A stretch of 64,000 nucleotides of DNA from Bacilli bacterium (GCA_017398945.1 JAFQES010000027.1:67404-131403), one strand, 5' to 3'; numbered from the stretch's first letter, positions 24,710-49,745 are shown. Program-made: numbers and translations. The notes: a model not told the origin generated them from the letters alone.

Positions 24710-25714
24710 ATGATAAAAGTAGCAATTAATGGATTTGGAAGAATAGGAAGACTTGCATTTAGGCAAATGATTACAACAACTGATTTTGATATCGTTGCTA
24801 TAAATGATTTAACTAATGCGGAAGATTTAGCATATTTACTAAAATATGATACAGATCATGGTTCTTTTCATGAAGATGAAATATCATACGATAATGATGA
24901 ATTAATCATTGCTGGAAGTAAAAGAATAAAGGTCTACAGTGAAACTGACCCAGCAAATCTTCCGTGGGGTGAATTAGATATCGATTTGGTTTTAGAGTGT
25001 ACTGGTAAATTTACTGATGCTGAAAAAGCTAAAGCTCATATAACAGCTGGTGCAAAAAAAGTTTTAATTTCTGCTCCTGCGAAAGGAGATTTAAAAACGA
25101 TTGTTTATAGCGTTAATGATTCTACTTTAGATGGAACAGAAAACATTATTTCAGCAGCTAGTTGTACAACTAATTGCTTGGCACCAGTATTAAAAGTAAT
25201 TGATAATAATAATAAGATTATTAGAGGTTATATGACAACGGTTCATGCTTATACTAATGATCAAGCAACCTTAGATATAGCTCATAAAAAAGGAATTTAT
25301 GCCAGAAGAGGTAGAGCTTGCGCCCAAAACATTGTTCCAGCTTCAACGGGGGCTGCCAGTGCAATTGGTGAGGTTATTCCAAGTTTAAAAGGGAAATTGG
25401 ATGGACATGCGTTTAGAGTACCAGTATCTGATGGTTCCGTAATTGATGTAACTTTAGAATTAGAAAGAAATACAACAGTAGATGAAATAAATAATTTATT
25501 TAAAGCTAATGTTAGTGAAGTATTAATGGCGACTAATAATCCTATCGTTTCAAGTGACGTTCTAAATAAAAAATGTGGAGCATTAGTAGACATGTTATCA
25601 ACAAAAATATTAGAAGTGGATGGTAAACAATTAGTTAAAGTAATAGCCTGGTATGATAATGAATTTGGTTACACAGCTCAAATGTTAAGAACGGCTAAAG
25701 CGATGTTTAGATAA
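24710..25714 (+). CDS. gap: Glyceraldehyde-3-phosphate dehydrogenase
   Basis: NGFGRIGR, ASCTTNCLAP (catalytic Cys), WYDNEFGY. Confidence 0.96.
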   Translation: MIKVAINGFGRIGRLAFRQMITTTDFDIVAINDLTNAEDLAYLLKYDTDHGSFHEDEISYDNDELIIAGSKRIKVYSETDPANLPWGELDIDLVLECTGKFTDAEKAKAHITAGAKKVLISAPAKGDLKTIVYSVNDSTLDGTENIISAASCTTNCLAPVLKVIDNNNKIIRGYMTTVHAYTNDQATLDIAHKKGIYARRGRACAQNIVPASTGAASAIGEVIPSLKGKLDGHAFRVPVSDGSVIDVTLELERNTTVDEINNLFKANVSEVLMATNNPIVSSDVLNKKCGALVDMLSTKILEVDGKQLVKVIAWYDNEFGYTAQMLRTAKAMFR

Positions 25715-25738
25715 ATCAACAGAAATGTTGATTTTTTT
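25715..25738 (+). terminator. Rho-independent terminator after gap
   Basis: Stem atcaaca/tgttgat, loop gaaa, T7 run. Confidence 0.65.
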
Positions 25739-25756
25739 ATGTATTTAATTTAAAAT
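25728..25756 (+). promoter_or_regulatory. Candidate promoter (cassette copy 1) for the leader ORF and array copies 1-2
   Basis: TTGATT-N17-TAAAAT. The -35 is formed by the 3' arm of the gap terminator. Same architecture as at 28000 and 38216. Confidence 0.4.
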
Positions 25757-25777
25757 AACAACCCATAGGTGATATCT

Positions 25778-26054
25778 ATGGATAAAATACAATTACAAAA
25801 AGATATAAATGAGGTTATCAACAGTTTTAAACTATTCTTCGGAAATTTTAGAAATGAAAAAAAGAGAAGCTGTGGCTTTAATTGAAAAATTCTATTGTAA
25901 CAATTTAAATTATTTAGGTGAGATGGTTTATGGGTATAAATGTTCATATTCAGATGAAATAGATGCTATTTGTAAAAATATTAGCTTTGGTAGAAAATTA
26001 ACAAGAAAAGTTGATGATGGTACAGCTACGTGCATAGTAAAAGGGTGTGATTAA
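25778..26054 (+). pseudogene. Small Cys-containing leader ORF split by an A7 tract
   Basis: ATG at 25778 with SD aggtga gives only 35 codons (stop at 25885). The remaining 66 codons (MKKREAVALIEKFYCNN...CIVKGCD) are in the +1 frame across A7 at 25857-25863 and have no SD of their own. Confidence 0.35.
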
Positions 26055-26056
26055 AA

Positions 26057-27007
26057 ATGGGATTGTTTGATGATAAAATTGATGAGCAAGAAGAGAAATT
26101 AATTCAAAAAATTGGCAAAGACTTAAATGCTGCAATGGCTATATTTTGTCACAGATTAGTAGACAAACATACAGCAGAGGACTATAGAGAATATTCACGT
26201 CCTCATCAAAGTACGAATGAATATTTAATGGGAGTATATAGTCAAGTTGATTTATCTAGAAGTAATAATGCCTTGACCGTATTATCAAGTGGAGACCATG
26301 TTTTTAATTTGTTATATCATGATGTTTTAAATATAGATACCTTTGATTGCAACAGGTTAACAGAATATTATGCTTTAGGCTTTAAATTAACAGCCATAAA
26401 AGTTCTTACATTTAAGCAATTTGAAGATTTATTTGCTGACCGTGATGATTATGAGCGTAGTATCGAGAAATATGTAATAAGCAAAATGCCCTTTCATTAT
26501 CAATTATTTTGGCAACATCTTTTAGAAAAACGTCAAGAGATTGGTTTTGAAAGACCTACAGTGTTTGATTTTTGCCGAGATGTTGGATACGATCGTTCTC
26601 ACCATTTTGATTATTCAGAAGCGAGAACAAGATATAACACTTTAAATGCCTATCGAAATCCTGATGGTTTTGAAAAAGTAAAAGAAAATTTAAAAAAAGC
26701 TAATATAACTTTTAAAGTATCTGATATTAGAGAAATACCCCAAAAGTTTGGCGCTTATGATTTCATTGAATTATCTAATATTATTGGTGTTTTAATGAAC
26801 TGGATTGAACCAGAACTCTTAATATCTATAATAAAAAATATATATGATAACAATCTAAATGATAATGGCGAAATGATATTTGCATATAGATATAATAGTC
26901 CTACAATAGAGCGAGATGAAGTTTATAATGGTGTTAACTTTGGACGCAAACGAGCACTAAGCATATGGCCGGATTCTGCTGGCTGCTTATCCAAAAAAGG
27001 AAAATAA
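26057..27007 (+). CDS. Array paralog 1/18, DUF3419/BtaA-like SAM-binding-fold protein (family call tentative)
   Basis: HQSTNEYL; LTVLSSGDHVFNL; IDTFDCNRLTEYYALGFKLTAIKVL; YDFIELSNII; NLNDNGEMIF. Confidence 0.8.
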   Translation: MGLFDDKIDEQEEKLIQKIGKDLNAAMAIFCHRLVDKHTAEDYREYSRPHQSTNEYLMGVYSQVDLSRSNNALTVLSSGDHVFNLLYHDVLNIDTFDCNRLTEYYALGFKLTAIKVLTFKQFEDLFADRDDYERSIEKYVISKMPFHYQLFWQHLLEKRQEIGFERPTVFDFCRDVGYDRSHHFDYSEARTRYNTLNAYRNPDGFEKVKENLKKANITFKVSDIREIPQKFGAYDFIELSNIIGVLMNWIEPELLISIIKNIYDNNLNDNGEMIFAYRYNSPTIERDEVYNGVNFGRKRALSIWPDSAGCLSKKGK

Positions 27008-27009
27008 CA

Positions 27010-27888
27010 ATGATAGAAGTGACGCAAAGAGAAAAAGATATTGAAGAAGTTATAAAAAAATACTGTAGTTCAAGAAGTTTAAAAGCAATAGGTTATGATT
27101 ATAGCGAATATGGTAGGTCTTATCATTTCACCAATGAACATTTAATTGAATTATACAACCAAATAGATTTTACAAATTATCATACCGCATTAAGTGTTTT
27201 ATCTAGTGGCGATCACGTTTTTAACATGATTTATAACGGAATGGAACAAGTTGATACGTTTGATAGTAGTAGGTTAACTGAATACTATGCACTAGGTATT
27301 AAAAAAACTGCTATAGAGCAACTAAATTATCAAGAGTTTTTAACATTATTTTCTAATTCTTTATTACGTAATGATAATGAGTTGGCTTTAGAAAAATATG
27401 TATTATCTTGTACACCAAAAGAATATAAATTTTTTTGGGGATCATTTCTCGAAGCTCAAAGAAATTTGGGAGAAGAAAATCCTACAATATTTACACTTTG
27501 TCGTGATGTCGGGATAATTAGAGGAAATAATTTATATATACAAAGAGAAAAAGATTATAATAAGCTTAAAGAAAACTTAAAGCACGCAGAAATAACATAT
27601 ACGAATGCTGACATTAGAGATTTGCCTGAATTATTTAGTAGTTATGACATTATAGCATTATCAAACATAATAAGCGTTTTAGATAGTTACGTTGAGCCAG
27701 GCATTATCCACAATATGATAAAAAGTATTTATGAGTCTAATTTGAATAAATACGGACAAATGATATATGATTACAAATTTAAAGAAGATGTAATAATTGA
27801 TGATGAATATTTTAATGCAATTAATTATGCTCCAAAGCTTATAAGGAAACTAAATGGTGATGAGGCTGCTATTTTAAGAAAAAGATGA
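27010..27888 (+). CDS. Array paralog 2/18
   Basis: YHFTNEHL; LSVLSSGDHVFNM; VDTFDSSRLTEYYALGIKKTAIEQL; YDIIALSNII. ATG at 27010 is chosen because the N-terminus MIEVTQREKDIE aligns with the other copies. Confidence 0.8.
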   Translation: MIEVTQREKDIEEVIKKYCSSRSLKAIGYDYSEYGRSYHFTNEHLIELYNQIDFTNYHTALSVLSSGDHVFNMIYNGMEQVDTFDSSRLTEYYALGIKKTAIEQLNYQEFLTLFSNSLLRNDNELALEKYVLSCTPKEYKFFWGSFLEAQRNLGEENPTIFTLCRDVGIIRGNNLYIQREKDYNKLKENLKHAEITYTNADIRDLPELFSSYDIIALSNIISVLDSYVEPGIIHNMIKSIYESNLNKYGQMIYDYKFKEDVIIDDEYFNAINYAPKLIRKLNGDEAAILRKR

Positions 27889-27986
27889 TAACCTTAATAG
27901 GTTGTCAAAAATAAAAAGCTTGGGTATAGTGAATTTTTAGATTGCTGTAATTCCCATATAAAGTTAGCTAGACTACATCAGAAAAG

Positions 27987-28010
27987 AGTAACTAACAGGT
28001 TGCTTTTTTT
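27987..28010 (+). terminator. Weak terminator after copy 2 (cassette copy 2)
   Basis: 6-bp stem agtaac/gttgct (one G-U pair), loop taacag, T7 run. Confidence 0.35.
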
Positions 28011-28028
28011 ACTTTATTAAGTTAAAAT
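28000..28028 (+). promoter_or_regulatory. Candidate promoter for copies 3 onward (cassette copy 2)
   Basis: TTGCTT-N17-TAAAAT, 26 nt upstream of the copy 3 ATG. SD aagggg. Confidence 0.35.
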
Positions 28029-28054
28029 AATTAACTTAGTTAAGGGGTATTATT

Positions 28055-28924
28055 ATGATTGAAAGAAATAAAGATTTATTAGCCGCTATAAACTTGTATA
28101 ATGAAATGCAAAAATTTAGCTATAATGGATATAAATTTTATGGCTATGGAGCGTGTTATCAACAAACAAATGAAAAATTGTTGGCATTATTAAGCAAAAT
28201 TGATTTATCTAAAACAAATAAGGCTTTGACAGTAACAGCCAGCGGCGATCATATCTTAAATTTGCTTACAAAAGGTATTACCAACATTGATACTTTTGAT
28301 AGTAATCGTTTAACTGAATATTATGCATTAGGATTTAAATTGGTTGCGGCAAAGTGTTTGGATAAGGAACAATTTTTTAAACTATTCACAGAAACTCCCC
28401 ATTCCAAAGAAAATATTGCATTGCAAAAATTTGTAATTTCTTGTGCCCCTGAACAATATCGGTGGTTTTGGCAAAATTATTTTATTTTTTTAGATAATGA
28501 AAAAAATGAGCATCAGGGTATTTTTGAAATATGTCGTAAGAAAGTAGAAAATCATATAGATAATAATATATATCTACAATCTTCTCAAAATTATCTTGCA
28601 ATGCAACAAGCTTTAAATAAATCTAATATAACTTTCAATCATTTGAACGTAACACAGATTCCAGAAAATTTAGGTACTTATGATTTTATTTATTTATCAA
28701 ATATTTTTGAATATCGTCAAAAAATATTTGGTACAAACGATTCGGTAACAGATGTTGCTGAATTGGTAGAGTCAATATATAAAAACAATTTAAATATGAA
28801 TGGTGAATTATTTTATTTATATGTAATATTTAGAAATTATCAAGAAATTATGAATAGTATTAAAATTGCGGAAACGAAAATATATAGAGATAAAAATTTA
28901 AGAGTTTTAAGTTTAAAAAAATAG
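28055..28924 (+). CDS. Array paralog 3/18
   Basis: YQQTNEKL; LTVTASGDHILNL; IDTFDSNRLTEYYALGFKLVAAKCL; YDFIYLSNIF; NLNMNGELFY. Confidence 0.8.
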   Translation: MIERNKDLLAAINLYNEMQKFSYNGYKFYGYGACYQQTNEKLLALLSKIDLSKTNKALTVTASGDHILNLLTKGITNIDTFDSNRLTEYYALGFKLVAAKCLDKEQFFKLFTETPHSKENIALQKFVISCAPEQYRWFWQNYFIFLDNEKNEHQGIFEICRKKVENHIDNNIYLQSSQNYLAMQQALNKSNITFNHLNVTQIPENLGTYDFIYLSNIFEYRQKIFGTNDSVTDVAELVESIYKNNLNMNGELFYLYVIFRNYQEIMNSIKIAETKIYRDKNLRVLSLKK

Positions 28925-28937
28925 AGGTGGTGAAACA

Positions 28938-29816
28938 ATGCGACGAATTTCTGGTTGGGAAAAAGATTTAGCTGGCGTAATAGCTAGAGGTAAAGATATA
29001 GCAATTGATTATCAAAAATATTCTAAGTGTTATCCTTTTACTAACGAAAAATTGAAAGACCTAACATCTTTTATTGATAAAGCTAATGTTAATAAGGCGC
29101 TTTGTGTTTTATCAAGTGGCGATCATGCTTTTAATCTAATTTATCATGGGATAAATAATATAGATACTTTTGATTGTAACCGAATTACCGAGTATTACGC
29201 TTTAGGATTTAAAAGGTATGCAATAGAATGCCTTAGCTATCAACAATTCTGCGATTTCTTTTTTAATGATTCTTCTGAAAACCAATCAATCGAAAAGTAT
29301 ATAATTAGTTGTCTTCCAGAAAAATATAAAAATTTCTGGCAAAGTTATTTTGAGTATCTATTAGAAAATTACAATCCTTTATTATCAAGTAGAAGAAGTG
29401 CAAATATTTTTCGGATATTATGTTATATTGAAGAAAGTATGACTGAAAATAATAACTATCTTTCGAGTGAAGAAGACTACAAAAAGTTACAAAGAAATCT
29501 TTTAAATGCTCAAATTAATTTTAAAGAACTTGATGTAAATGCCCTAAGTCATCAAAAAGAGAAATATGATTTAATAATGTTATCGAATATATTACAAGCT
29601 ATGAAAAAACCATTAATTGGAAAAACAATTGATATTGCTGAAAAAATATTTAAACAAAATTTAAAAGAAAATGGGGAAATAATTTATTTGTATGAATTTT
29701 TTGATAAAGAATTATTAGGAAAAAAAGAAATGGTGTTGGAAAGAACACCTGGTTCACAAAATATAAAATATATTTTAGATGGTAGTTATGCTACTAGTAA
29801 GAAAAAAATAATTTAA
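28938..29816 (+). CDS. Array paralog 4/18
   Basis: YPFTNEKL; LCVLSSGDHAFNL; IDTFDCNRITEYYALGFKRYAIECL; YDLIMLSNIL; NLKENGEIIY. Confidence 0.8.
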   Translation: MRRISGWEKDLAGVIARGKDIAIDYQKYSKCYPFTNEKLKDLTSFIDKANVNKALCVLSSGDHAFNLIYHGINNIDTFDCNRITEYYALGFKRYAIECLSYQQFCDFFFNDSSENQSIEKYIISCLPEKYKNFWQSYFEYLLENYNPLLSSRRSANIFRILCYIEESMTENNNYLSSEEDYKKLQRNLLNAQINFKELDVNALSHQKEKYDLIMLSNILQAMKKPLIGKTIDIAEKIFKQNLKENGEIIYLYEFFDKELLGKKEMVLERTPGSQNIKYILDGSYATSKKKII

Positions 29817-29824
29817 GTGGTGCA

Positions 29825-30703
29825 ATGATAGCTAATATTAATAATGAACAACGTCAAAAAGACTTAGAACAAATACCAAAATTTATAAATGATAGTGATT
29901 TTGAATATAAATTTCAAGAATATTCAGCTATTTACTATCTTACTAATGAAAAGTTATCAAATTTATATAATGAAATTAATTTTACAAAGTACAAGACAGC
30001 TTTAACTGTGTTATCAAGTGGCGATCAAGCTTTTAATTTAGTATTAGAAGGATTAGAAAAAATAGACACTTTTGATTGTAATCGCTTAGCAGAGTATTAT
30101 GCTTTAGGATTTAAAAAAACCGCCATTCAATGTTTAGATTATAAAGATTTTACCAATTTATTTTATCTTCGCCAGAAAAAGCTATATGACTTAGAAAGTG
30201 AAGTAATAAAACATATGCCAGAAGAATATAAACTTTTTTGGAAAGAGTATCGAGAAGAATATAGACAATATTATCCTTATCCTAGTGTATTGGGGTTGGC
30301 TAAAGAACATAATTTTCCTAATGGAAATAATATTTATTTTAGTAAAGAGAGTTATAAATATTTGCAAAAAAGATAAAATGAGGTATTAATTACGTTTACT
30401 TATGCAGAAGTTAAACAATTACCTGAGGTGTTTGGTCAATATGATTTTATATATTTATCTAATATTTTATCATATGATCACTGGGTATTTAATAGTGATG
30501 ATAGAGAATATTTAGCAGAGCAATATGCTAAGTTAGTATCAGATATATACACAAAAAATTTAAATCAAAATGGACTATTAATATATAATTATGGATTTAA
30601 TGGTTTACTAGATAAATATTGTAGTAAAGAAATTGTAGAAAGAAAAGTCACTTATGATTTAGGTAAGTTAAATAGAGCACACGGGTTAAGAAAAATCAAA
30701 TAG
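29825..30703 (+). pseudogene. Array paralog 5/18, interrupted by one in-frame TAA
   Basis: Track ORFs 29825..30376 and 30428..30703 are in the same frame. TAA at 30374-30376 replaces the conserved Leu of LQKR-L. The motifs are intact on both sides (LTVLSSGDQAFNL; YDFIYLSNIL). Confidence 0.75.
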
Positions 30704-30717
30704 AAAGGGAAATATCA

Positions 30718-31614
30718 ATGTTAAGTTTAGGAGAACAAAGAAAAATAGACATTCAAAAAATTTTAGAAATATATGGAAAAGCAGATATTTCTTTAACTGG
30801 TAACTTTTTTGATGAATACTCACGTTTCTATGATTTTACTAATGAAAAACTATTTGGTTTATTTGAATTGTTAAAATTACAGGAAAAAGAATTCGCTTTA
30901 ACAGTTTTATCGAGTGGAGATCATGTTTTTAATTTAATATTACAAGGAATTAATAAAATTATGACCTTTGATTGTAATCGCCTAACAGAATATTATGCTC
31001 TAGGTTTTAAAAAAACTGCTATTGAAATACTAAATTATGAACAGTTTATTGAATTATTTTGTCCGTATGGATATTCAGCGGTATCATCTAAATTAATTGA
31101 ATTAGAAAAAGAAGTTATCAAAAATATGCCACTTATTTATCGCAAATTTTGGGAGAACTTTTTAAATATGCGTAGAGAATATGAATATAATCCGAGTATT
31201 TTTCATTTGACTTATTCAACAAGTAATTTTGCAAAAGCCATCAGTAATAATAAATATCTTTTAAATGCAGAAATGTATAACGCTTTAAAAAGGAAAATAT
31301 CAACTGCTAAAATTGAATTTGTTGCTGCTAATATAACTGATGTCCCCCAATTATTCGGAAGATATGATTATATCGATTTTTCAAATGTATTATATTATTA
31401 TCAAAGGATATTTCCTGAAGAAAGTGCAATGAAAGCTATTAATTTTGTTAAATCGGTTTATGAAAACAACCTCAATGAAGGAGGGCTGTTTAAATATTAT
31501 TATGACTTTGATGGATTAAGACATTTACCAAAGGTTGGTGGACAGATAGAAAAAGAATATGTTTTAGGTTCAGATACAACTTCAATTTTAAAAAGAACAA
31601 TAAATATGAATTAA
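30718..31614 (+). CDS. Array paralog 6/18
   Basis: YDFTNEKL; LTVLSSGDHVFNL; IMTFDCNRLTEYYALGFKKTAIEIL; YDYIDFSNVL; NLNEGGLFKY. Confidence 0.8.
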   Translation: MLSLGEQRKIDIQKILEIYGKADISLTGNFFDEYSRFYDFTNEKLFGLFELLKLQEKEFALTVLSSGDHVFNLILQGINKIMTFDCNRLTEYYALGFKKTAIEILNYEQFIELFCPYGYSAVSSKLIELEKEVIKNMPLIYRKFWENFLNMRREYEYNPSIFHLTYSTSNFAKAISNNKYLLNAEMYNALKRKISTAKIEFVAANITDVPQLFGRYDYIDFSNVLYYYQRIFPEESAMKAINFVKSVYENNLNEGGLFKYYYDFDGLRHLPKVGGQIEKEYVLGSDTTSILKRTINMN

Positions 31615-31622
31615 AAAATAAC

Positions 31623-31651
31623 TTGTAGATTTTAATAACATGCTTTATTAT
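31623..31651 (+). promoter_or_regulatory. Candidate internal promoter upstream of copy 7
   Basis: TTGTAG-N17-TATTAT in the 109-nt spacer. SD agggggag precedes the ATG at 31724. Confidence 0.35.
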
Positions 31652-31723
31652 ATAATGCAACTAGTAATAACAAAGATTAATTTATTTGAAGACCTACAGT
31701 TTTATTTTAGGGGGAGTAAAGTT

Positions 31724-32647
31724 ATGGTAATATCACAACAGCGTAAATTTGACTTGGAAAATATGATTAAAATATATTTAGAAGGTTATCAAGATGGATA
31801 TTTTGGAGTTAATGATGATTTTATAGAATATGCTAGTTTCTATCATTTGACTAATGAGCCTGTTAATAAAATATTTAGTGAAATCGGTTTGAATGAGGTT
31901 CAAAAAGCTTTAAGCGTTCTAGCTAGCGGGGATCAAGTATTTCATATGATTAGTGGCGGGGTTCAAAATATTGATACCTTTGATATAAATCGCTTAACAG
32001 AATATTATGCCCTAGGATTTAAGAAAAGAGCAATAGAATGTTTAAATTATTATGAATTTATGAAGTTATTTGAGTATTATAAAGACTGGGATCTTGAACG
32101 ACATTTTGGCGAAAATAAAGACATAGAAAAGTATGTAATTGAAAATATGGAAGAAGAATACAAATGTTTTTGGAATGAATTCCTTTATGCCGTAAAAGAA
32201 AAAGGATTTGAAGCAAGTATATTTCATTTATCTTGTGAAGCTGATCTTATTGATAGGCAAAATACAAAAAACAATTTATATATGAAAGATGAAAGTGAGT
32301 ATATTAAACTACAAAGAAGACTGAAGGAAGTTAATATATCATATAAGTATTGCTCAATAATGGATGTTCCAACTACATTTGCTAAATATGATTTAATATA
32401 TCTTTCTAATATTATGGATTATTATCGTTCTTTTTATGGAAATAATAATAGACCAATGGATGATGCTAGAAATTTAATTAAAGCCATTTACACTCAAAAT
32501 TTAAATCCAAATGGCGAAATAATATTAACGGAAATGCAAAGAAAATTTTCCCCCAATGAATTTTTAAAAGAAATGATTAATCATCCGATCATTAATAATT
32601 GTCTATTTACAGCTTATGGAATAAAAAAGAAGCGAAAATTAAAGTAA
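31724..32647 (+). CDS. Array paralog 7/18
   Basis: MVISQQRKFDL; YHLTNEPV; LSVLASGDQVFHM; IDTFDINRLTEYYALGFKKRAIECL; YDLIYLSNIM. ATG at 31724 has a strong SD; the track's longer start has none. Confidence 0.8.
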   Translation: MVISQQRKFDLENMIKIYLEGYQDGYFGVNDDFIEYASFYHLTNEPVNKIFSEIGLNEVQKALSVLASGDQVFHMISGGVQNIDTFDINRLTEYYALGFKKRAIECLNYYEFMKLFEYYKDWDLERHFGENKDIEKYVIENMEEEYKCFWNEFLYAVKEKGFEASIFHLSCEADLIDRQNTKNNLYMKDESEYIKLQRRLKEVNISYKYCSIMDVPTTFAKYDLIYLSNIMDYYRSFYGNNNRPMDDARNLIKAIYTQNLNPNGEIILTEMQRKFSPNEFLKEMINHPIINNCLFTAYGIKKKRKLK

Positions 32648-32667
32648 ATAAATAGGGGGCAATACAA

Positions 32668-34493: not shown

Positions 34494-34499
34494 AATGTC

Positions 34500-34528
34500 T
34501 TGTTATTTAATCAAAATCAATATATAAT
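34500..34528 (+). promoter_or_regulatory. Candidate internal promoter upstream of copy 10
   Basis: TTGTTA-N17-TATAAT. SD aaggggg before the ATG at 34557. Confidence 0.45.
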
Positions 34529-34556
34529 ATGAAATTAATCAAAAAGGGGGATTTAG

Positions 34557-35471: not shown

Positions 35472-35483
35472 TGGGGTGTTAGA

Positions 35484-36407: not shown

Positions 36408-37318
36408 AAACAATATCTGAACAAAGAAGAAAAGATTTAGACGAGGCTATAGAGCTTTATTTATCTGCTTATCAAAAGAAAGATTTTGTAAACGATGATT
36501 TTGTTGAATATGCCGGTTATTATCGAATTACTAATGAACCATTTAGTAAATTTTTAGCCAAAGCCAATTTTTCTGATACAACAAAAACGCTCAGTGTCTT
36601 ATCTAGTGGAGATCAAGTGTTTGAAATGGTACGAAAAGGAATTAAAAAAATAGATACCTTTGATATAAATAGAATGACTGAGTACTTTGCATTAGGTTTT
36701 AAAAAACGTGCTATAGAATGCTTGACATATGAACAATTTTTAAGCCTTAACAAATACGATAGGATCGTTACTAAGCATAATAATGAAAATCTTGAAATAG
36801 AAAAATATGTAATTGAAAATATGGAAGAAGAATATAAGTGGTTTTGGCAAGAATTAATAGCTAGCTTAAAAGGTGAAGGTTTTAATGTTAGTGTATTTCA
36901 TTTTGTTATAGATTATCTCTATTTAACAAAATTCCATTATAGTAGAAATCCTTATATGGCAGATAAAGAAAAATATAAAGAATTACAACAAAAATTGTTA
37001 AAGGCCAAGATAACTTTTCAGCAAGCTGATATAAAAGAACTTCCTAAAAAATTTCAACAATATGACTTGATATATTTATCTAATATCTTAGAATATCATG
37101 AAGATATTTTTGAAAAATCTGGTTTCCCACCTGAAGAAGCAATTAAGTTATTAAAAAAAATTTATAATAAAATGTTAAATAATTACGGTGAAATCATTTT
37201 AACTGATTTAATGAATTGGTTTTATCCAGAATTTTGCGGAGAAAAGTTATTTAAAGAAAATCATGAGTTAATAATCGATGGATCAGATAGAGGATATATA
37301 TTAAAAAAGAAAAAATAA
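36401..37318 (+). CDS. Array paralog 12/18
   Basis: 7-nt overlap with copy 11. LSVLSSGDQVFEM; IDTFDINRMTEYFALGFKKRAIECL; YVIENMEEEYKWFWQEL; YDLIYLSNIL. Confidence 0.8.
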   Translation: MVKTISEQRRKDLDEAIELYLSAYQKKDFVNDDFVEYAGYYRITNEPFSKFLAKANFSDTTKTLSVLSSGDQVFEMVRKGIKKIDTFDINRMTEYFALGFKKRAIECLTYEQFLSLNKYDRIVTKHNNENLEIEKYVIENMEEEYKWFWQELIASLKGEGFNVSVFHFVIDYLYLTKFHYSRNPYMADKEKYKELQQKLLKAKITFQQADIKELPKKFQQYDLIYLSNILEYHEDIFEKSGFPPEEAIKLLKKIYNKMLNNYGEIILTDLMNWFYPEFCGEKLFKENHELIIDGSDRGYILKKKK

Positions 37319-37330
37319 CTAGGAGGAATT

Positions 37331-38199
37331 ATGAATAAACAGCAAAAAAAGATATTGAAATGACTAAAGACTTCTATCGTAAATTAATTCTTAATTGTAA
37401 TATAGGAAATAGCTTTGAAACATATTCTAAAGTTTATTCCTTCACTAATGAAAATCTTGCTGATCTTTATCCTTTGATACATTTTGAAAAATATAATAGC
37501 GCTCTTACAGTTTTATCAAGTGGAGACCATGCCTTTAATCTAATTTATATGGGAATTGATAAAGTAGATACATTTGATACAAATCGCTTAACTGAATACT
37601 ATGCATTAGGTTTAAAAAAGACAGCTATCCAATGCTTAAATTATAATGAATTTATGAAATTATTTTCTGGAAAAATAGAACGAAAACAAATTGACCTGCT
37701 TAATTATGTGATTCAAAATATGGAACCAGAATATCGTAATTATTTTGAAACATTAATTGCATACTTTAAAAAATATTCTTTTGACTATGTAATTCATTTA
37801 TTTAGGAGCGATACTGATATAAGTCAAAAAGATATAAAAAACATCTATCTTCGTTCCGGTGTTAATTATCACAAAAAGCAAAAAAGATTAGCTAATACTA
37901 CTATTAGTTTTAAACATTGTGATGTGTTAAATATCCCAAAAGAATTTGGAAAGTATGATTTAGTAGAGCTATCTAATATTTTAGGAGTAAGTGTGAACAG
38001 AAACTGGCTACAGAAAAAAAGAGTTTATGATTTGCTTCGTCAAATTTATGATAATAACTTAAAACATGGAGAACTTCTGTTTGATTATTCTTGGGGAAAT
38101 GATTTTAGGACAGTAGGGGAATGTAGTGATATTTTTGATAATGTTAGTTATGCAAACAAAAAAGAATATGCTCACATGAACGATCTTATACGAAGTTAA
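37331..38199 (+). CDS. Array paralog 13/18, 5' end out of frame across an A7 tract
   Basis: SD aggagg serves the ATG at 37331, which stops after 10 codons. The body (ATG at 37360, no SD) is in the -1 frame. A7 at 37344-37350; an A8 would give MNKQQKKDIEMTKDF... The body motifs are intact (LTVLSSGDHAFNL; VDTFDTNRLTEYYALGLKKTAIQCL; YDLVELSNIL). Confidence 0.7.
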
Positions 38200-38226
38200 A
38201 AAAAACAACAATAGGTTGTTTTTTTT
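38198..38226 (+). terminator. Terminator after copy 13 (cassette copy 3)
   Basis: Stem acaac/gttgt extended by A-run/T-run pairing, loop aatag, T8 run. Confidence 0.55.
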
Positions 38227-38244
38227 GCTCTTTTATTATAAAAT
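38216..38244 (+). promoter_or_regulatory. Candidate promoter for copies 14-18 (cassette copy 3)
   Basis: TTGTTT-N17-TAAAAT. The -35 lies in the terminator 3' arm. SD aagggg before the ATG at 38273. Confidence 0.35.
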
Positions 38245-38272
38245 ACAAACTTAACTGGTAAGGGGCATTTTT

Positions 38273-39172
38273 ATGGGAAACTTAGAAGAACAAAGATTAG
38301 AAGATTTAAGGCAAATTAGAGATAGAATTAAGAATTGTAATTTATCACGTGATTTTGAAGAATATGCTGTGTTTTATTATTTTTCAAACGAACAAATAAA
38401 CAGGAAATATGCTCAAATAGATTTTACAAATTATCATACCGCCTTAACTGTGTTATCAAGCGGAGATCATGCGTTTAATATAATATACAAAGGCATTGAC
38501 CTTGTGGATACTTTTGATATAAATCGTATGACGGAATATTATGCCCTAGGATTTAAAAAGCGTGCCATAGAATGTTTAAGTTTTGAACAGTTTTACTCTT
38601 TATATGATTTTGGAAATATTCAAAGATTACTTGAATTAGAAGATGAAGTTATTAAGTGCATGGATAGAGAATACAAGAAATTTTGGGAATCTTTTAAATA
38701 TGAATTAAATTGTTTAGGAGAAAGAATTCCAACTGTTATACGTTGGACTAAGGAAATTGCCAAACCTCACGGGAATTACTATAATAGTTATTTAGAAAAT
38801 GAAGAATCATATAAACGTTTACAAAAAAGATTAGAAACTGCTAAAATTACTTTTACCCAAGGAAATATAACAGAAATACCAACTAGATTTGGAACATATG
38901 ATTTTATTGAATTATCAAACATATTAACTTATCAACGTCATATATTTCCCCATAGTTTGGCAAAATATAATACAACAAAATTAGTAAGAAAAATTTATGA
39001 GCATAATTTAAAAGGTTTAGGGACAATGCTTTACCAAACCGGAGGAACAATAGTAGGTAATAACCCATTAAGTTGTTTTGCGCCTAAACTTCTAAAAAGA
39101 GCAAAAAATAACTTTGATAAAAACAATACTGAATCATGGGTTTATGGACTTCAAAAAGGGGACAGGAAATGA
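38273..39172 (+). CDS. Array paralog 14/18
   Basis: YYFSNEQI; LTVLSSGDHAFNI; VDTFDINRMTEYYALGFKKRAIECL; YDFIELSNIL. Confidence 0.8.
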   Translation: MGNLEEQRLEDLRQIRDRIKNCNLSRDFEEYAVFYYFSNEQINRKYAQIDFTNYHTALTVLSSGDHAFNIIYKGIDLVDTFDINRMTEYYALGFKKRAIECLSFEQFYSLYDFGNIQRLLELEDEVIKCMDREYKKFWESFKYELNCLGERIPTVIRWTKEIAKPHGNYYNSYLENEESYKRLQKRLETAKITFTQGNITEIPTRFGTYDFIELSNILTYQRHIFPHSLAKYNTTKLVRKIYEHNLKGLGTMLYQTGGTIVGNNPLSCFAPKLLKRAKNNFDKNNTESWVYGLQKGDRK

Positions 39173-40043
39173 ATTTGGTAGAACAAAGATTAGAAGATTT
39201 AAAACAATTAAAAAAATTATTAAAACGAATAGTCTGCCATATGACTTTAAAGAGTATGCTGCCTTTTATTAATTTTCTAATGAACGAATAAACCAAAAAT
39301 ATTCTGAAATTGATTTTACAAATTACCAAACAGCATTGTGCGTTTTATCAAGAGGGGATCATGCTTTTAATGCAATATGTCACGGTATAGATAAAGTAGA
39401 TACTTTTGATGTGAATCGCTTAACAGAGTATTATGCAATAGGCTTTAAAAAAAGAGCAATAGAGTGTTTGAATTTTGAACAATTTTGTTCTTTGTATATT
39501 CTTCATGAGAAAAAATTAATGGATTTAGAAGATGAAGTAACTAAAAACATGGATTAAGTATATAAAAAGTTTTGGGAAACTTATATTTACGAAACGAAAT
39601 GTTTAGGTGAGTCTTTTCTGAGTGTATTATGGTGGAGGAAAGAGTATAAATATCCTGAAGGTAACATCTACAATGCTTATTTAGAAAATGAAGAATCATA
39701 TAAATATTTACAAAAACGATTAGAGGTTGCAAAAACAACTTTCACTTAAGCGAATATAACTGAATTGCCATCAAAATTTAAAGACTATGATTTTATTGAA
39801 TTATCAAATATATTATCTTATGGAGAATATATTTTTGGGAATTATATTAAATATCGATCAAGTAATTTAATAAGCGAGATTTATGACTGTAATTTAAAAA
39901 ACAAAGGAACAATGATATATCAAACAAGAGGATGTGATCCCTTAAATCCTTTGCTTACTCCAATGCGTCTTAAAAGGGCAAGGAAAACCTTTGCCGAAAG
40001 TGATGGCTGGTGTGTGTATATGGTCTTCAGAAAGGTGGGATAA
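39169..40043 (+). pseudogene. Array paralog 15/18, decayed duplicate of copy 14
   Basis: ATGA overlap with copy 14. One frameshift near 39215-39235 plus three in-frame TAA codons (FY*FSNE, NMD*VYKKFW, TFT*ANITE). Still aligns with copy 14 along its full length. Confidence 0.8.
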
Positions 40044-40044
40044 A

Positions 40045-40983
40045 ATGACAATATCAGATCAAAGAAAAATAGATTTACAAAAGGCTATAGAAGTTTATAT
40101 GCGTAAGTTAAAAAGAAACAATCCGAACATAAATGGTGGGGAGTATGGCTTGTATTATCGATTTACTAATGAACCCTTTGTTAACTTTGTTAACAGGGTA
40201 AATGTTTCTGCAAATATTGATGTGCTTACTGTGCTTGCTAGCGGAGACCAAGCTTTTAATTTTATTCAATCCGGAGCTAATCATATTGATACATTTGACA
40301 TTAATCGCTTAACGGAATATTTTGCCCTTGGTTTTAAAAAGACTGCTATTCAAGTATTAAATTATGAGAATTTTTTAAAATTATTTAATTATAATAGCTT
40401 AAAACCACAAAATACTCCAGACCTAGAATTAGAAAAAAGTATAATAGAATCATGTCCAGAAGAATACAAATGGTTTTGGCAAGAATTCACGCATATTTTA
40501 AAAGATAATAACTTGAATCCCAGTGTATTTGAAATATCCGAGGGATTTCATTCCAATATAGTGAAAAAACATCGTTGTAATAATTATATGAATAATGAAG
40601 AAAATTATAAATTGTTACAAAAGAGATTATTAGAAACGACAATAACATTTCAGCCTTTAGACTTAGCCGATGTATCTAAAGCAATCAAGCAAAAATATGA
40701 CTATGTATTTATATCCAATATTTTAGATGCTTTTGCTACCCATACTACTAATAATATTCCTAATTCTTTAAAAGTAGCGTTAAAAATGTTTTTAGATATT
40801 TATCGCCATAATGTAAAAAGAAATGGAGAATTAACATTTTCAACATTTGATTTTGGAGGACTTGGTGATGAGTTTATCGATATGTATAATTTGTTAGATA
40901 ATAAAAATGGTGAAAAAGTTATGTATCCGGGTGAAGTACCTCTAATATTTGGTTTGCGAAAAAGTAAAAAAAAAATAAAATAA
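40045..40983 (+). CDS. Array paralog 16/18
   Basis: MTISDQRKIDL after the SD aaaggtggg; LTVLASGDQAFNF; IDTFDINRLTEYFALGFKKTAIQVL; YDYVFISNIL. Confidence 0.8.
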   Translation: MTISDQRKIDLQKAIEVYMRKLKRNNPNINGGEYGLYYRFTNEPFVNFVNRVNVSANIDVLTVLASGDQAFNFIQSGANHIDTFDINRLTEYFALGFKKTAIQVLNYENFLKLFNYNSLKPQNTPDLELEKSIIESCPEEYKWFWQEFTHILKDNNLNPSVFEISEGFHSNIVKKHRCNNYMNNEENYKLLQKRLLETTITFQPLDLADVSKAIKQKYDYVFISNILDAFATHTTNNIPNSLKVALKMFLDIYRHNVKRNGELTFSTFDFGGLGDEFIDMYNLLDNKNGEKVMYPGEVPLIFGLRKSKKKIK

Positions 40984-41029
40984 GAAATTATATACTAACT
41001 ACAATGTTCATATAATGAAAGGAAACTAA

Positions 41030-41947
41030 ATGATGAAAATATCAGAACAAAGAAGAATAGATTTAGATAAAGCTATTAACACCTACCTTGAAAGATTTGA
41101 AAAATCAAATATTGATATTCAAAGAAAGTTTTTAGAGTACTCTGGATATTATAAATTTACTAACGAGTATTTAGGTAGATTAATATTAAAAAAGAATTAT
41201 TCCGCCGAATTTTTAAGCGAGAAAAGACTTTTAACTGTATTATCAAGTGGCGATCAAGCGTTTAACTTTATTAATCAAGGAGTAATGACGGTTGATACTT
41301 TTGATATAAATCGTTTAACTGAATATTTTGCCCTAGGATTTAAAAAAGTTGCATTAGAAACTTTAACATATGATCAATTTGAAAATTTATTTAAAAACTT
41401 TCTTGTTGATAGCGCTCGCGATTTGGAAAAGGGGGTAATTGAAAACGCGCCAGAAGAATACAAGTGGTTTTGGACTGAGTTTAAATATGCCTTAAAACAA
41501 AATGGGTTTCCAAATCCAAGTGTCTTTGACTTAGCTAAAAGAATGGATTATTACAGAGTAAAATCGTCAAATGTTAATCCCTATTTGTGCAGTGTAGATG
41601 ATTACAAAAATTTTCAACAGCAACTATCCAAAGCAAAAATAACTTTTCAACAATGTGATATTAAAGAGTTGCCTACAAAACTTGCTAAGTACGATTTAGT
41701 GTTGTTATCTAATATTGTTGAATATTATGGAAAAACAAACAAACCAATATCTGAACAATTATTAGAAGCTCAAACGGTTACACAAGATATATTTAATAAC
41801 AATTTAAACCTTGGCGGAGAAATGGTGCTTTTCGCATTTTATCAATCATTTATTGGAAAAGTGTGTCGCAACTTAAATATTAATTGCGCTAAGGATATCT
41901 TTTATTTGCTTGAAGATAAGGTATATAGTCTAAAAAGGAGCTTGTAA
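41030..41947 (+). CDS. Array paralog 17/18
   Basis: MMKISEQRRIDL; LTVLSSGDQAFNF; VDTFDINRLTEYFALGFKKVALETL; YDLVLLSNIV. Confidence 0.8.
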   Translation: MMKISEQRRIDLDKAINTYLERFEKSNIDIQRKFLEYSGYYKFTNEYLGRLILKKNYSAEFLSEKRLLTVLSSGDQAFNFINQGVMTVDTFDINRLTEYFALGFKKVALETLTYDQFENLFKNFLVDSARDLEKGVIENAPEEYKWFWTEFKYALKQNGFPNPSVFDLAKRMDYYRVKSSNVNPYLCSVDDYKNFQQQLSKAKITFQQCDIKELPTKLAKYDLVLLSNIVEYYGKTNKPISEQLLEAQTVTQDIFNNNLNLGGEMVLFAFYQSFIGKVCRNLNINCAKDIFYLLEDKVYSLKRSL

Positions 41948-42842
41948 TGGAATCGTTAGAAAAAGCTCAATTATTAAAAGATATCGAAAAAAGTGTTAGC
42001 GTTATTAAAACATCTGCTAAATTTAGTGAATATAGTAAAGTATATCCATATACTAATGAAAATCTTATTAAAAAATATAGTTTAATAAATGAGGGTGATT
42101 ATCAAACGGCGTTAACTGTCTTATCAAGTGGAGATCATCTTCTTAATTTAGTTATGAATGGTACGTCCCATATAGATACTTTTGATGTAATAAAATGACA
42201 GAATATTATGTGATGGATATTAAAATACCGGCCATTTTAAATATGACGTATGAACAATATATGCAGTTTTACAAAACATTGCTTACGCCTGGAATTAATG
42301 AAGATAAAATATTTGCTGTTGTAAAAGGCGCAGAAGAAAAATATAAATACTTTTGGGAAGAGTTCTATCGCATATATTATGACCAAAATAATTTGAGATT
42401 TGATTTTGAAAATTTATTTATTTCTGAATTTGATAGGTTGCATTTTAATAAATATCTTCGAAGTTCTAGTGATTATCAAAAAATGCAATCTTGTTTAAAA
42501 GATGCTACAATAACGTTTAAACATGCAGATGTTACAACAATCCCATTAGAATTTAAAACATATGATTTAATAGACGTCTCAAATATACTAAATTATTATG
42601 AAACAATTTTTAAAGCATATAATTATCCGCGAGAAGAAAGAAAAAAATTAGTTGCTGAAATTGTTTCTAAAAATTTAATCCAAGACGGAGTCATATTCTA
42701 TGATTACTTTTTAGGGACAGGTTTTTATGAAGCGATAAGACAAACGCGTGCAGTGATGCTAGAAAATACTTCTCATTTTAGTGTTGAGTGCACAAATGAG
42801 CTTGCTTTAGGTTTAACTAAAAAGAAAAATAGCAACTTGTAA
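41947..42842 (+). pseudogene. Array paralog 18/18, single-base frameshift
   Basis: Track ORFs 41947..42198 and 42195..42842 are the two halves. The frame breaks inside the DTFDV-N-KMTEYY motif (gatgtaataaaatgaca where gatgtaAataaaatgaca is expected). Confidence 0.75.
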
Positions 42843-42864
42843 ATAACTTTAATTAAGGTATAAT
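42837..42864 (+). promoter_or_regulatory. Candidate promoter for pgk-tpiA
   Basis: TTGTAA-N16-TATAAT spanning the end of copy 18. Confidence 0.4.
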
Positions 42865-42881
42865 TATAATAGGTGATAATA

Positions 42882-44018
42882 ATGAAGTTTATTGAAGATA
42901 TGCATCTAAATAACAAAAGAGTTATCGTGAGATGTGATTTTAATGTTCCAATAATTGATGGAAAAATAACTGATGATAGTAAAATAGTTAAGAGTTTAAA
43001 AACTATTAATTACTTACTAGAAAAAAATTGTCGAGTTGTTTTATTAAGCCATTTAGGAAGAGTAAAGTCAAATGAAGATAAAAATAAAAATACATTGTTG
43101 CCAGTTAAGGAGTCTTTAGAAAGTTTACTTGGTACGGAAGTAACGTTTGTTACCGATTATCCAAATGAAGATATTCCTAAAGATAGGAAACTAATTCTTT
43201 TAGAAAACACTAGGTATTTTGACTATCCAGAAAAATTAGAAAGCGGTAATGATTTAGAACTAGCTAAAATGTGGTCTAAACTTGGAGATGTTTTTGTTTA
43301 TGATGCATTTGCTAGTGCGCATCGTCGTCATGCGTCAACATCAGGACTTGCTAGTTTACTTCCAACCTGTATTGGTTATCTAGTAAAACAAGAATTAGAA
43401 AATTTAAATCATGTTAAAGAACCAAACGAACCATTTATGGTTATAATGGGTGGCGCTAAAGTAGATGATAAACTTCCCCTTATCAAAAACCTACTACCTC
43501 GCTGTGAAAATCTATTGCTTGGCGGAGGTATAGCTAATTCGTTTTTAAAGGCCAAAGATATAAATGTAGGTAGTAGCTTAGCTACGACAGACGAAAATAT
43601 TTTATTAGATTTAAAATGTCTAATTGAATTATATAAAGATAAAATAGTTTTACCTATAGATTTCAAAGATAAAAATACTGGGGAAATAAAAACGTTAGAA
43701 GAGCTAGTTAATGATGACATTATTTATGATATAGGTCCTAAAACAGCAACTAAATATGGAAATATCTTAAAAAATGCTGGGACAGTATTCATGAATGGAA
43801 CTCTTGGGATGAGCGAAGAAGCTGGGTTTGAAAACGGTACTAAAAAAGTTTTCGAATATTTAACTAATGTGCCAACTGTTGTAATTGGTGGTGGAGATAC
43901 TGTTGCAGCTGTTAATAACCTAGGATTTACAGATAAATTTATATTATCAAGTGGAGGAGGAGCTTCTTTAGAGTATATTGCTTATCAAACTCTGCCTGTT
44001 TTGGAGGATATAAAATAA
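42882..44018 (+). CDS. pgk: Phosphoglycerate kinase
   Basis: RVIVRCDFNVP, GGAKVDDKLPLI, GGGDTVAAV. ATG at 42882 lies 5 nt after the SD aggtga. Confidence 0.93.
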   Translation: MKFIEDMHLNNKRVIVRCDFNVPIIDGKITDDSKIVKSLKTINYLLEKNCRVVLLSHLGRVKSNEDKNKNTLLPVKESLESLLGTEVTFVTDYPNEDIPKDRKLILLENTRYFDYPEKLESGNDLELAKMWSKLGDVFVYDAFASAHRRHASTSGLASLLPTCIGYLVKQELENLNHVKEPNEPFMVIMGGAKVDDKLPLIKNLLPRCENLLLGGGIANSFLKAKDINVGSSLATTDENILLDLKCLIELYKDKIVLPIDFKDKNTGEIKTLEELVNDDIIYDIGPKTATKYGNILKNAGTVFMNGTLGMSEEAGFENGTKKVFEYLTNVPTVVIGGGDTVAAVNNLGFTDKFILSSGGGASLEYIAYQTLPVLEDIK

Positions 44019-44732
44019 ATGAAAGTAGTATGTAATTTAAAATCGCATAAGACTTGGAAAGAATATCGTGAGTATATCGTTGATTTAAGTAAGTTAGATA
44101 CTAATCATGAACTCATAATAGCTCCAAGTTTTCCTTATTTAGCATATTATCCTAAAAATATAGCACTTTGCTCTCAAGATGTTTCTTTTAGCAACCACGA
44201 AAATATTGTTGGTAATGTTACTGCTAAACAGTTAAAATCATTAGATGTTAGATATTGCCTAGTTGGACATAGTAGCAGAAGAATTCATTATGATGAAAAT
44301 GAAAAACAATTTAAACAAAAAATTGCTAATTGTTTAGAAAATAATATTAAAGTTATTTATTGTGTAGGAGAATCTCGTGAAGAAAAACAACGCGAAAAAA
44401 CTTATCAAGTTCTTGAAAAGCAAATTGCCAGAATATTTAATAACTTTGAAGGAGATTTAAATAATATAATTATCGCTTACGAACCAATCTGGGCTATTAG
44501 TGAAAATAAAAAAGATAGCGATAGTATTGATTTAGCAAAAATAAAAGATATTGTTATCTTTATTAAAAAAATTATTTTAGATTATTATGATATAAACATA
44601 AATGTCTTATATGGCGGAAGTATTGATGAAGACATTGTTGGGGATTATTTAGACTTAGAAATTGATGGCTTTTTAATTGGGAATGCTAGTTTAGATATTG
44701 AACAAGTGAAAAAAATCCTAAATAAAATATAA
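44019..44732 (+). CDS. tpiA: Triosephosphate isomerase (divergent)
   Basis: CNLKSH (Asn/Lys), VGHSSRR (His), AYEPIWAI (Glu), YGGSI. Directly abuts pgk. Confidence 0.8.
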   Translation: MKVVCNLKSHKTWKEYREYIVDLSKLDTNHELIIAPSFPYLAYYPKNIALCSQDVSFSNHENIVGNVTAKQLKSLDVRYCLVGHSSRRIHYDENEKQFKQKIANCLENNIKVIYCVGESREEKQREKTYQVLEKQIARIFNNFEGDLNNIIIAYEPIWAISENKKDSDSIDLAKIKDIVIFIKKIILDYYDININVLYGGSIDEDIVGDYLDLEIDGFLIGNASLDIEQVKKILNKI

Positions 44733-47219: not shown

Positions 47220-47326
47220 TAACAAAAAATTATTCATGAGTATAAAAGTGATATATATATTTTTTTTATATAACTATTATGATAAAATTGTTTTAATAAA
47301 TAATGTTTATGCAAAGGTGGTTTTAT

Positions 47327-47869: not shown

Positions 47870-47886
47870 TTTAAATAGAAAATATA

Positions 47887-47916
47887 TTGTTATTTAAATG
47901 TAATGAGGTATATAAT
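47887..47916 (+). promoter_or_regulatory. Candidate promoter for the HEAT/methyltransferase gene
   Basis: TTGTTA-N18-TATAAT. SD gggagg follows. Confidence 0.3.
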
Positions 47917-47939
47917 ATATATTAATTAGGGAGGTTAAA

Positions 47940-49736: not shown

Positions 49737-49745
49737 GAGGTAATA

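Follow-up and report, generated by a model that had tools for sequence, protein, structure and literature searches.

A 17-kb tandem array of S-adenosylmethionine-dependent transferase-like genes between gap and pgk in a Bacilli bacterium

The interval between the glycolytic genes gap and pgk was analysed in a window of 64,000 nucleotides (nt) of low-GC DNA (about 28%) from a Bacilli bacterium (GCA_017398945.1, JAFQES010000027.1:67404-131403). The two genes are separated by a 17-kb block of tandem paralogs (25778-42842), which is probably an old, lineage-specific expansion of one family of putative S-adenosylmethionine (SAM)-dependent transferases. All features that a first-pass annotation had described between gap and pgk were found in place. 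A ruminant-gut contig from ENA (L002) is 100% identical to the window across 20.9 kb. The array and its immediate flanks are composed as follows, where c01 to c18 are the paralog units, R_k01 and R_k02 are copies in the relative RGIG3081, and aa stands for amino acids.

24710-25714, + strand: gap, type I glyceraldehyde-3-phosphate dehydrogenase, left flank (Pfam Gp_dh_N E 1e-37, Gp_dh_C E 4e-51; 95% identity to RGIG3081 Gap)
25778-26054, + strand: copy 0, a pseudogene with its original ribosome-binding site (RBS), ATG and about 10 codons, an internal deletion of about 590 bp and an out-of-frame 3' remnant (blastp and alignment)
26057-27007, + strand: c01, intact (PF11899 28.1 bits; pairs with R_k01 in the tree)
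27010-27888, + strand: c02, intact (pairs with R_k02 in the tree; 71% identical to it over the covered part)
28055-34493, + strand: c03, c04, c05 (pseudogene), c06, c07 (start 31724), c08 and c09 (RGIG3081 orthologs 52-96% identical)
34557-38199, + strand: c10, c11, c12 and c13, all intact
38273-42842, + strand: c14, c15 (pseudogene), c16 (start 40045), c17 and c18 (pseudogene); c15 and c18 are intact in RGIG3081
42882-44018, + strand: pgk, right flank (PGK PF00162, E 1e-110)
44019-44732, + strand: tpiA, right flank (Pfam TIM E 3e-52)

The units between 26057 and 42842 are all on the same strand and encode about 300 aa each. The earlier figure of 18 paralogs stands as a count of units, but only 15 are intact and a remnant of a further copy lies in front of them. 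Copy c05 is interrupted by one in-frame TAA (30374), c15 by three in-frame TAA codons (39270, 39555 and 39747) and c18 by a frameshift near 42195. In assemblies from other samples, the c15 lesion was recovered in two (no gene call) and the c18 lesion in all four (calls of 83 and 215 aa), so these two lesions are not read errors.

The open reading frame (ORF) of 81 aa at 25809-26054, which had been annotated as a leader, is a real ORF, yet it aligns with the C-terminal 60-80 residues of the paralogs (blastp versus c01, E 4e-8). At this position RGIG3081 carries an intact paralog of 288 aa (L035 11069-11935). Compared with that gene, the window has kept the RBS, the ATG at 25778 and the first ten or so codons before the deletion, after which the sequence resumes out of frame. 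A leader peptide or regulator was thereby ruled out; the ORF is what is left of the 3' end of a deleted paralog. With this copy 0 included, the array amounts to 19 units, four of which are defective.

Spacers between the array genes range from -7 to 166 nt, and a Shine-Dalgarno sequence precedes each intact copy whose upstream region was read, although it is weak at c13. No member of the family was found elsewhere in the window. The start of pgk was set at the ATG at 42882, preceded by AGGTGA (42871-42876), where the ORF listing had a GTG at 42873; with this start pgk follows c18 after 39 nt, exactly the distance given in the first-pass annotation.

The sole Pfam family matched by the array proteins was DUF3419 (PF11899, gathering threshold 28.2 bits). 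Six array products were tested, including the copy-0 remnant. Copies c03 (47.2 bits) and c12 (31.8) passed the threshold and c01 (28.1), c08 (26.6) and c17 (24.5) fell just under it, while the truncated remnant gave no match. Many database homologs carry a precomputed PF11899 match. Near residues 190-260, matches to generic methyltransferase domains of Pfam were found below threshold. An AlphaFold2 model of c12, built on an alignment of 64 sequences (pLDDT 90.4, pTM 0.91), has the class I methyltransferase topology with an alternating beta/alpha core. Foldseek aligned this model with 204 PDB chains at E <= 1e-3; the 50 best matches listed are class I methyltransferases, except for an uncharacterised Leptospira protein (6ulo). 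Among the best were the methyltransferase domain of OvoA, OvoM, NNMT, Dam and 6ulo.

In the 64 sequences, N45, E46, G70, D71, D88, S227 and N228 are invariant. G70-D71 (L-S/A-S/G-G-D) follow strand 1 (62-66), D88 (D-T-F-D) ends strand 2 (83-88), S227-N228 come after strand 4, and the N-terminal T-N-E motif is invariant as well. The fold topology and the glycine-rich motif I with an acidic end of beta2, by which class I enzymes are recognised, are both present, and G70-D71, D88 and S227-N228 are the residues expected for SAM binding. The array proteins are accordingly classed with the class I SAM-dependent transferases, with a likeness to BtaA in the N-terminal third, and not as demonstrated orthologs of BtaA.

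DUF3419 is the BtaA-type domain, and BtaA moves the 3-amino-3-carboxypropyl group of SAM to diacylglycerol (PMC10685587, PMC10491745, PMC11869996). The array proteins share with it the SAM-dependent class I fold and the N-terminal motif region, which matches with up to 47 bits. They differ in length (about 300 aa versus about 400 aa for BtaA) and resemble only positions 9-123 of the 385-position model. The host is a Gram-positive gut anaerobe with nothing pointing to betaine-lipid synthesis, and carries 19-24 tandem copies rather than one. After 6ulo, OvoM, the C-terminal domain of OvoA and NNMT are the best structural neighbours (Foldseek E about 1e-6), from which the array proteins are set apart by TM scores of 0.35-0.47, an identity of 10-15%, a different helical insert and N-terminal helix, and the lack of family-level sequence membership.

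Further searches with the array proteins added little. The NCBIfam search gave nothing useful, PHROG gave no matches, and with PADLOC only the N-terminus of c01 matched a DRT model, at a marginal, chance-level value (E 1.3e-4). Searching PDB sequences with the family profile returned a marginal match to OvoM only (E 0.13). TIGR04345 and 9bxl showed a weak similarity in sequence at motif IV and the helix after it, and the BFVD fold search yielded generic methyltransferases only. No description of such arrays was found in the literature search, in which DUF3419 was named in only six papers. In nearly all paralogs the last beta-strand is followed by a short, basic C-terminal tail (for instance GIKKKRKLK, SLKKRKIK, ILKKKK), which from its sequence could bind an (anionic) membrane or nucleic acid.

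The gap-pgk interval was compared across relatives, given here with the identity of their Gap and Pgk to those of the window.

RGIG3081 (L001, L006, L035), Gap 95%, Pgk 93%: gap, 24 units all called full-length, pgk, tpiA, spo0A, gpmI
L040 and L042, Gap n.d., Pgk 98%: at least 15 units, pgk, tpiA, spo0A, gpmI
L037 and L043 (same samples), Gap 84%, Pgk 81%: gap, then three small ORFs and htpG; pgk on another contig behind a 4-copy array
L039, Gap 81%, Pgk 68%: gap, 57 nt, pgk, spo0A, further on gpmI and the S10 operon; array-less
L007, Gap 75%, Pgk 67%: gap, a PP2C phosphatase gene and a 95-aa ORF, pgk, tpiA, spo0A, further on gpmI; array-less
Distant Firmicutes, one Coriobacteriaceae and one Omnitrophota genome, lower identity: gap directly 5' of pgk

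An array is attached to pgk in all genomes examined that reach a Pgk identity of 81% or more with the window. It is missing from L039 and L007 (Pgk 68% identical or less), which share the flanking synteny of the window. Gap lies directly upstream of pgk in L039, L008, L009, L010, L024, L026, L012 and L013; the exceptions are L007, with 2.1 kb of cargo, and L037, in which no pgk was found within 10 kb of gap. It is most parsimonious that gap and pgk were ancestrally adjacent, and this distribution would place the origin or arrival of the array at the base of this small clade. The synteny comparison proposed with the first-pass annotation therefore supports its central claim, an insertion where the two genes once stood side by side, as illustrated by the 57-nt spacer of L039 and the distant genomes.

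L037 was initially taken for an array-less close relative with unlinked gap and pgk, a finding that had been named in advance as evidence of mere coincidence. This assignment was revised when the pgk from the same samples was found behind a 4-copy array. The genes are formally unlinked there, but the small array attached to pgk indicates a secondary rearrangement and not a coincidental juxtaposition. L028 (GCA_045650425.1) carries an array of eight copies in another setting, with a Mur ligase gene on one side and unrelated genes on the other; the copies follow the order of a part of the RGIG3081 array, with 77-87% identity, so the gap-pgk position is not obligatory.

The cargo of L007 (8035-9927), a 533-aa coiled-coil and PP2C phosphatase gene with the 95-aa ORF, comes with a strong terminator (-14.3 kcal/mol) and a promoter, TTGACA-N17-TATTAT, of its own. 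In the L040 lineage, assembly L041 (11892-12762) has spo0A called in two pieces (204 and 88 aa) and one array copy called as 140 and 152 aa, which is either strain-level pseudogenisation or assembly error.

The candidate signals for transcription at the junctions and within the array are the following.

25713-25738, + strand: terminator- or attenuator-like hairpin and T-run after gap (-8.2 kcal/mol, z = -3.2 versus shuffles)
27981-28010, + strand: terminator-like hairpin and T-run in the 166-nt spacer between c02 and c03 (-12.1 kcal/mol, z = -4.4)
34500-34528, + strand: candidate internal promoter TTGTTA-N17-TATAAT in the spacer between c09 and c10 (10/12 consensus match)
38197-38227, + strand: terminator-like hairpin and T-run after c13 (-10.6 kcal/mol, z = -5.5; 0/200 shuffles fold as well)
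42837-42876, + strand: pgk promoter (-35 TTGTAA 42837-42842, overlapping the c18 stop; -10 TATAAT 42859-42864) and RBS AGGTGA 42871-42876

The clean terminator that had been described after gap exists as a hairpin with a T-run and is conserved in RGIG3081 and in the array-less L039, but it is weak and AT-rich. Its stem of 9 bp (25713-25734) reads AAATCAACA-GAAA-TGTTGATTT and is followed by the T-run; a consensus terminator scanner misses it, being too GC-poor. The 3' arm, TTGATT (25728-25733), can also serve as a -35 box. In the window scan it forms part of a promoter-like TTGATT-N17-TAAAAT (25728-25756) overlapping the hairpin, and in L039 it is the -35 of TTGATT-N16-TATAAT directly before pgk.

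The pgk promoter proposed earlier, TTGTAA-N16-TATAAT at 42837-42864, is present in the window and conserved in RGIG3081, L043 and L007. In these four, the sequence before pgk follows the pattern CTTGTAAA...TATAATTATA(A/G)TAGGTGATAATA, 0-4 nt, ATG. A block of 23 nt, TATAATTATAATAGGTGATAATA, is identical between the window and L007 despite a Pgk identity of 67% and unrelated upstream DNA, and this conservation is good comparative evidence that the promoter is real. Promoter-like matches in the window were not enriched over shuffles (128 found, 139.6 expected); at this chance level in AT-rich DNA, the sites at 25728-25756 and between c09 and c10 are to be read as candidates only. The spacer between c09 and c10 is conserved in RGIG3081 and L040, which is weak evidence because these are close relatives. 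No terminator was found between c18 and pgk.

The ancestral spacer would thus have been a seam of terminator and promoter, with the cargo placed exactly between both elements. A hairpin and T-run conserved behind gap and a promoter conserved in front of pgk suggest that the two genes are not co-transcribed. Ludwig and colleagues are said to have found, in 2001, an internal promoter before pgk in Bacillus subtilis. The same organism has an alternative terminator after gapA (PMC5013986). Together, the gapA terminator and the internal pgk promoter of B. subtilis would be analogous to the seam of the window. The locus further resembles the B. subtilis cggR-gapA-pgk-tpi-pgm-eno operon in the order gap, pgk, tpiA, gpmI and in the terminator-like structure after gap. 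It differs from it by a uridine-kinase-like gene in place of cggR before gap, by 17 kb of paralogs between gap and pgk, by spo0A between tpiA and gpmI and by the absence of eno after gpmI in the window. The contiguous glycolytic operon assumed at the outset is hence interrupted at a second place, by spo0A. Nor is it supported that the gap-pgk interval is among the most conserved loci of the cell, since the seam has been hit repeatedly in the clade (the cargo of L007, the split in L037 and L043).

The paralogs are 27-57% identical pairwise (mean 36%). In a neighbour-joining tree with 125 other representatives of the family, the array copies of four lineages fall in one clade, which fits expansion from one founder. 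Between lineages the copies pair as orthologs in the same order, so the expansion predates the split of these lineages. For ortholog pairs of the window and RGIG3081, the ratio of nonsynonymous to synonymous substitution rates (dN/dS) was 0.14-0.25 in the array and 0.05-0.16 for pgk, tpiA, spo0A and gpmI; the array values indicate purifying selection, each copy being a maintained gene. Paralogs vary most in three regions: the helix at the N-terminus, the helical insert (residues 111-200) and the last 45 residues. These same regions are about 80% conserved between orthologs, which is the pattern expected of paralogs with distinct specificities. Array and flanks hardly differ in their GC content at third codon positions (GC3; 0.176 and 0.178, respectively), and their relative synonymous codon usage is correlated with r = 0.99. 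The comparison of GC and codon usage proposed with the insertion claim thus shows no difference, and there is no compositional sign of a recent foreign origin.

The array itself is highly unstable. Unit numbers in the four lineages are 19 (window), 24 (RGIG3081), at least 15 (L040) and 4 (L043). The window lacks five copies present in RGIG3081 and has one extra (c17). The dS of the array 'orthologs' varies from 0.08 to 1.47, that of the flanks from 0.29 to 0.51. Although the Pgk of L040 is 98% identical to that of the window, many copies in its array are closer to their RGIG3081 counterparts (95-98% identity) than to those of the window (55-86%). Heterogeneous dS, the mosaic of L040 and the gain and loss of copies together form a signature of recombinational exchange and turnover.

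We consider it rather more probable than its alternatives that the block is an old, lineage-specific tandem expansion, seated in a seam of terminator and promoter, of specialised and strain-variable transferases with modular transcription. One subfamily of class I SAM-dependent transferases would have expanded in the non-coding space, ancestrally of about 57 nt, between the gap hairpin and a separately promoted pgk-tpiA. DNA placed between the hairpin and the -35 of pgk would disturb neither neighbour, which is probably why the seam accepted cargo of different kinds in different lineages; the location would be a tolerated 'safe harbour' that serves neither expression nor protection. The SAM-binding core is kept in each copy, and purifying selection would hold each as a distinct enzyme. 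Our best guess from the sequences is a set of substrate-specialised SAM-dependent alkyl transferases, which may transfer methyl or 3-amino-3-carboxypropyl groups to small molecules or lipid head groups. No single copy would be indispensable, and the set would be reshuffled among strains through homologous recombination, deletion and pseudogenisation. Transcription is probably modular, with a promoter overlapping the gap hairpin, two hairpin and T-run stops within the array and candidate internal promoters. Of the modules, the last alone (c14-c18) would run into pgk without a terminator, and pgk also has its own promoter.

Several points weigh against this explanation. The PF11899 matches end at position 123 of the 385 in the model, none covers its full length, and the proteins measure 279-316 aa. 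The structural matches of c12 are generic, with TM scores of 0.35-0.47 and DNA methyltransferases among them. That the copies are a substrate-specialised set we infer from the conservation pattern alone. Both the strength of the hairpins and the function of the promoters are predicted, in DNA that is very rich in AT, and the family tree is a neighbour-joining tree without support values. All comparison genomes are metagenome assemblies, and the split in L037 and L043 and the context of the L028 array could include binning or assembly artefacts.

The turnover of copies could also be the very point of the array. A strain-variable repertoire under diversifying or balancing selection, serving to decorate envelope lipids or polymers or acting as orphan 'immunity' enzymes against polymorphic toxins or phage, would draw its value from variable content. 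It is a doubtful reading, even though content is mosaic between strains with near-identical flanks (Pgk 98%), the heterogeneous dS suggests allelic replacement, copies are gained and lost, an EssC-like ATPase of a type VII secretion system (T7SS) is encoded 12 kb upstream and nearly all copies conserve the basic C-terminal tail. The pairwise dN/dS of 0.14-0.25 gives no sign of positive selection over the whole gene, PADLOC and PHROG gave no matches bar the one at chance level, and the array adjoins no toxin or T7SS substrate gene. The enzymatic core is kept and no signal peptide is evident (judged by eye only), unlike in typical immunity proteins. In staphylococcal T7SS loci, the esaG/DUF600 genes form tandem arrays of diverged orphan immunity genes beside polymorphic toxin loci. 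The present array resembles these in its many diverged same-strand paralogs, its strain-variable copy number and content and the marks of recombination; it differs by encoding 300-aa enzymes with a conserved SAM site, by the lack of an adjacent toxin gene and by its housekeeping neighbours. A bolder version would be a combinatorial, strain-specific 'modification repertoire', in which all paralogs act on one target, be it an envelope lipid, a polymer or an RNA, each adding a methyl or aminocarboxypropyl group at its own position or to its own variant of that target, and the set is reshuffled by recombination between strains under pressure from phage, competitors or the host. We give this only a slim chance; if true, the locus would be hypervariable in a new way, with SAM-dependent enzymes in the role otherwise taken by surface proteins or specificity subunits.

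The first-pass annotation had favoured placement or retention of the array in the glycolytic operon for high constitutive expression by read-through from the very strong gap promoter and for shielding from deletion by essential neighbours. The uniform strand and short spacers, the missing terminator between c18 and pgk, the weakness of the gap hairpin (partial read-through is plausible) and the linkage of array and pgk in four lineages all agree with this, and it is nevertheless unlikely. Strong constitutive read-through is not supported, as transcription from gap would need to pass three hairpin and T-run structures: the conserved one after gap and two stronger ones inside the array; pgk, moreover, has its own conserved promoter. 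Protection from deletion is contradicted by arrays of 4-24 units with mosaic content, by the four units of the window broken by internal deletion, nonsense mutation or frameshift, by the 8-copy array away from gap and pgk in L028 and by the loss of the linkage to gap in L037. A recently acquired genomic island or mobile element, integrated in the gap-pgk spacer, might explain why the array is absent from L039 and L007 and sits in another context in L028. This was rejected as very improbable: the gene content at the array includes no integrase or transposase, no tRNA gene occurs in the window, no homologs of the array were found among 72,556 plasmid and 50,697 phage records, and neither att repeats nor deviant composition was seen. 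Left and right junctions share only a 10-nt RBS, and 23% of shuffles score as well; flanking direct repeats are not significant and a target-site duplication was discarded as a chance-level match. The paralogs diverged long ago, and their order is the same from lineage to lineage. Hardly credible, too, is the idea that a past gene amplification left the array behind as a decaying remnant without current function. Although four of the 19 units are defective in the window strain and one lineage is down to four copies, every ortholog pair tested is under purifying selection, all RGIG3081 units are called full-length and the SAM-binding residues are invariant. With 27-57% identity and preserved order, the array is far too old for a neutral remnant.

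If the old expansion of specialised transferases holds, a reduced, uncultured gut bacterium spends 17-22 kb on about 20 separately maintained versions of one SAM-dependent enzyme, each of which presumably does something distinct. The array is so far confined to a few ruminant-gut Bacilli metagenome-assembled genomes, and its branch of the DUF3419 superfamily is essentially unstudied. As DUF3419-type enzymes have hardly been studied outside betaine-lipid synthesis, the array would provide a ready-made set of specificity variants with which to work out the role of the short bacterial branch. The seam of terminator and promoter in a 'conserved operon' would be a recurrent landing site for accessory DNA, which calls for caution towards adaptive-expression readings of its position.

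The wider family (proteins of about 300-330 aa) counts 547 representatives at E <= 1e-30, most of which appear single-copy in varied gene contexts. A scan of JGI metagenomes with the family profile returned distant single-copy relatives only and no more arrays. The contexts of distant single copies (mreCD-X-M23-M50, GGDEF-X and a radical-SAM/ATP-grasp cluster) were inconsistent and gave no functional lead. One single-copy member, 34% identical, lies between mreC-mreD and an M23/M50 peptidase pair in a SpoIVFA/FB-like position (L029 8932-12361) and may represent the ancestral single-copy state. Its contig comes from the same sample as the array-less L039. A very distant member (L033 6001-6720, E 2.4e-4) is located within three radical-SAM genes, an ATP-grasp gene and another methyltransferase gene, in what looks like a peptide or natural-product biosynthetic cluster.

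The genes further out on both sides of gap and pgk were also compared. Upstream, the order on the + strand is ftsE, ftsX, an M23 peptidase gene, whiA, clpP (on the - strand), the uridine-kinase-like gene and gap; downstream of the paralog block follow pgk, tpiA, spo0A and gpmI on the + strand, with the S10 ribosomal protein operon beyond.

23049-24692, + strand: uridine-kinase/PRK-family gene, 547 aa, with a long N-terminal extension, adjoining gap upstream
44851-45615, + strand: spo0A, full-length (Response_reg and Spo0A_C, E 4e-43)
45689-47188, + strand: gpmI

The uridine-kinase/PRK-family gene before gap is conserved in all relatives and occupies the position of cggR in Bacillus; no CggR-type regulator is present. 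The placement of spo0A between tpiA and gpmI was also found in L007, L039, L040 and L043, so that in the clade of the window the master sporulation regulator is embedded in a string of glycolytic genes. The EssC-like gene upstream of the array (9283-13908) encodes a protein of 1541 aa with an FHA and a double FtsK/SpoIIIE domain; two ORFs without Pfam match (61-1712) lie further upstream of it, and a WXG100 gene is found near the locus in RGIG3081 (L035 1-185). On the 3' side of gpmI, the window has a LOG/lysine-decarboxylase-like gene, a 598-aa fusion of HEAT repeats and a class I methyltransferase, and a CYTH gene (47303-50312). Neither RGIG3081, where L006 yielded no ortholog, nor L040, which has an AAA protein instead, shares this block, and it is a second variable spot ahead of the S10 operon.

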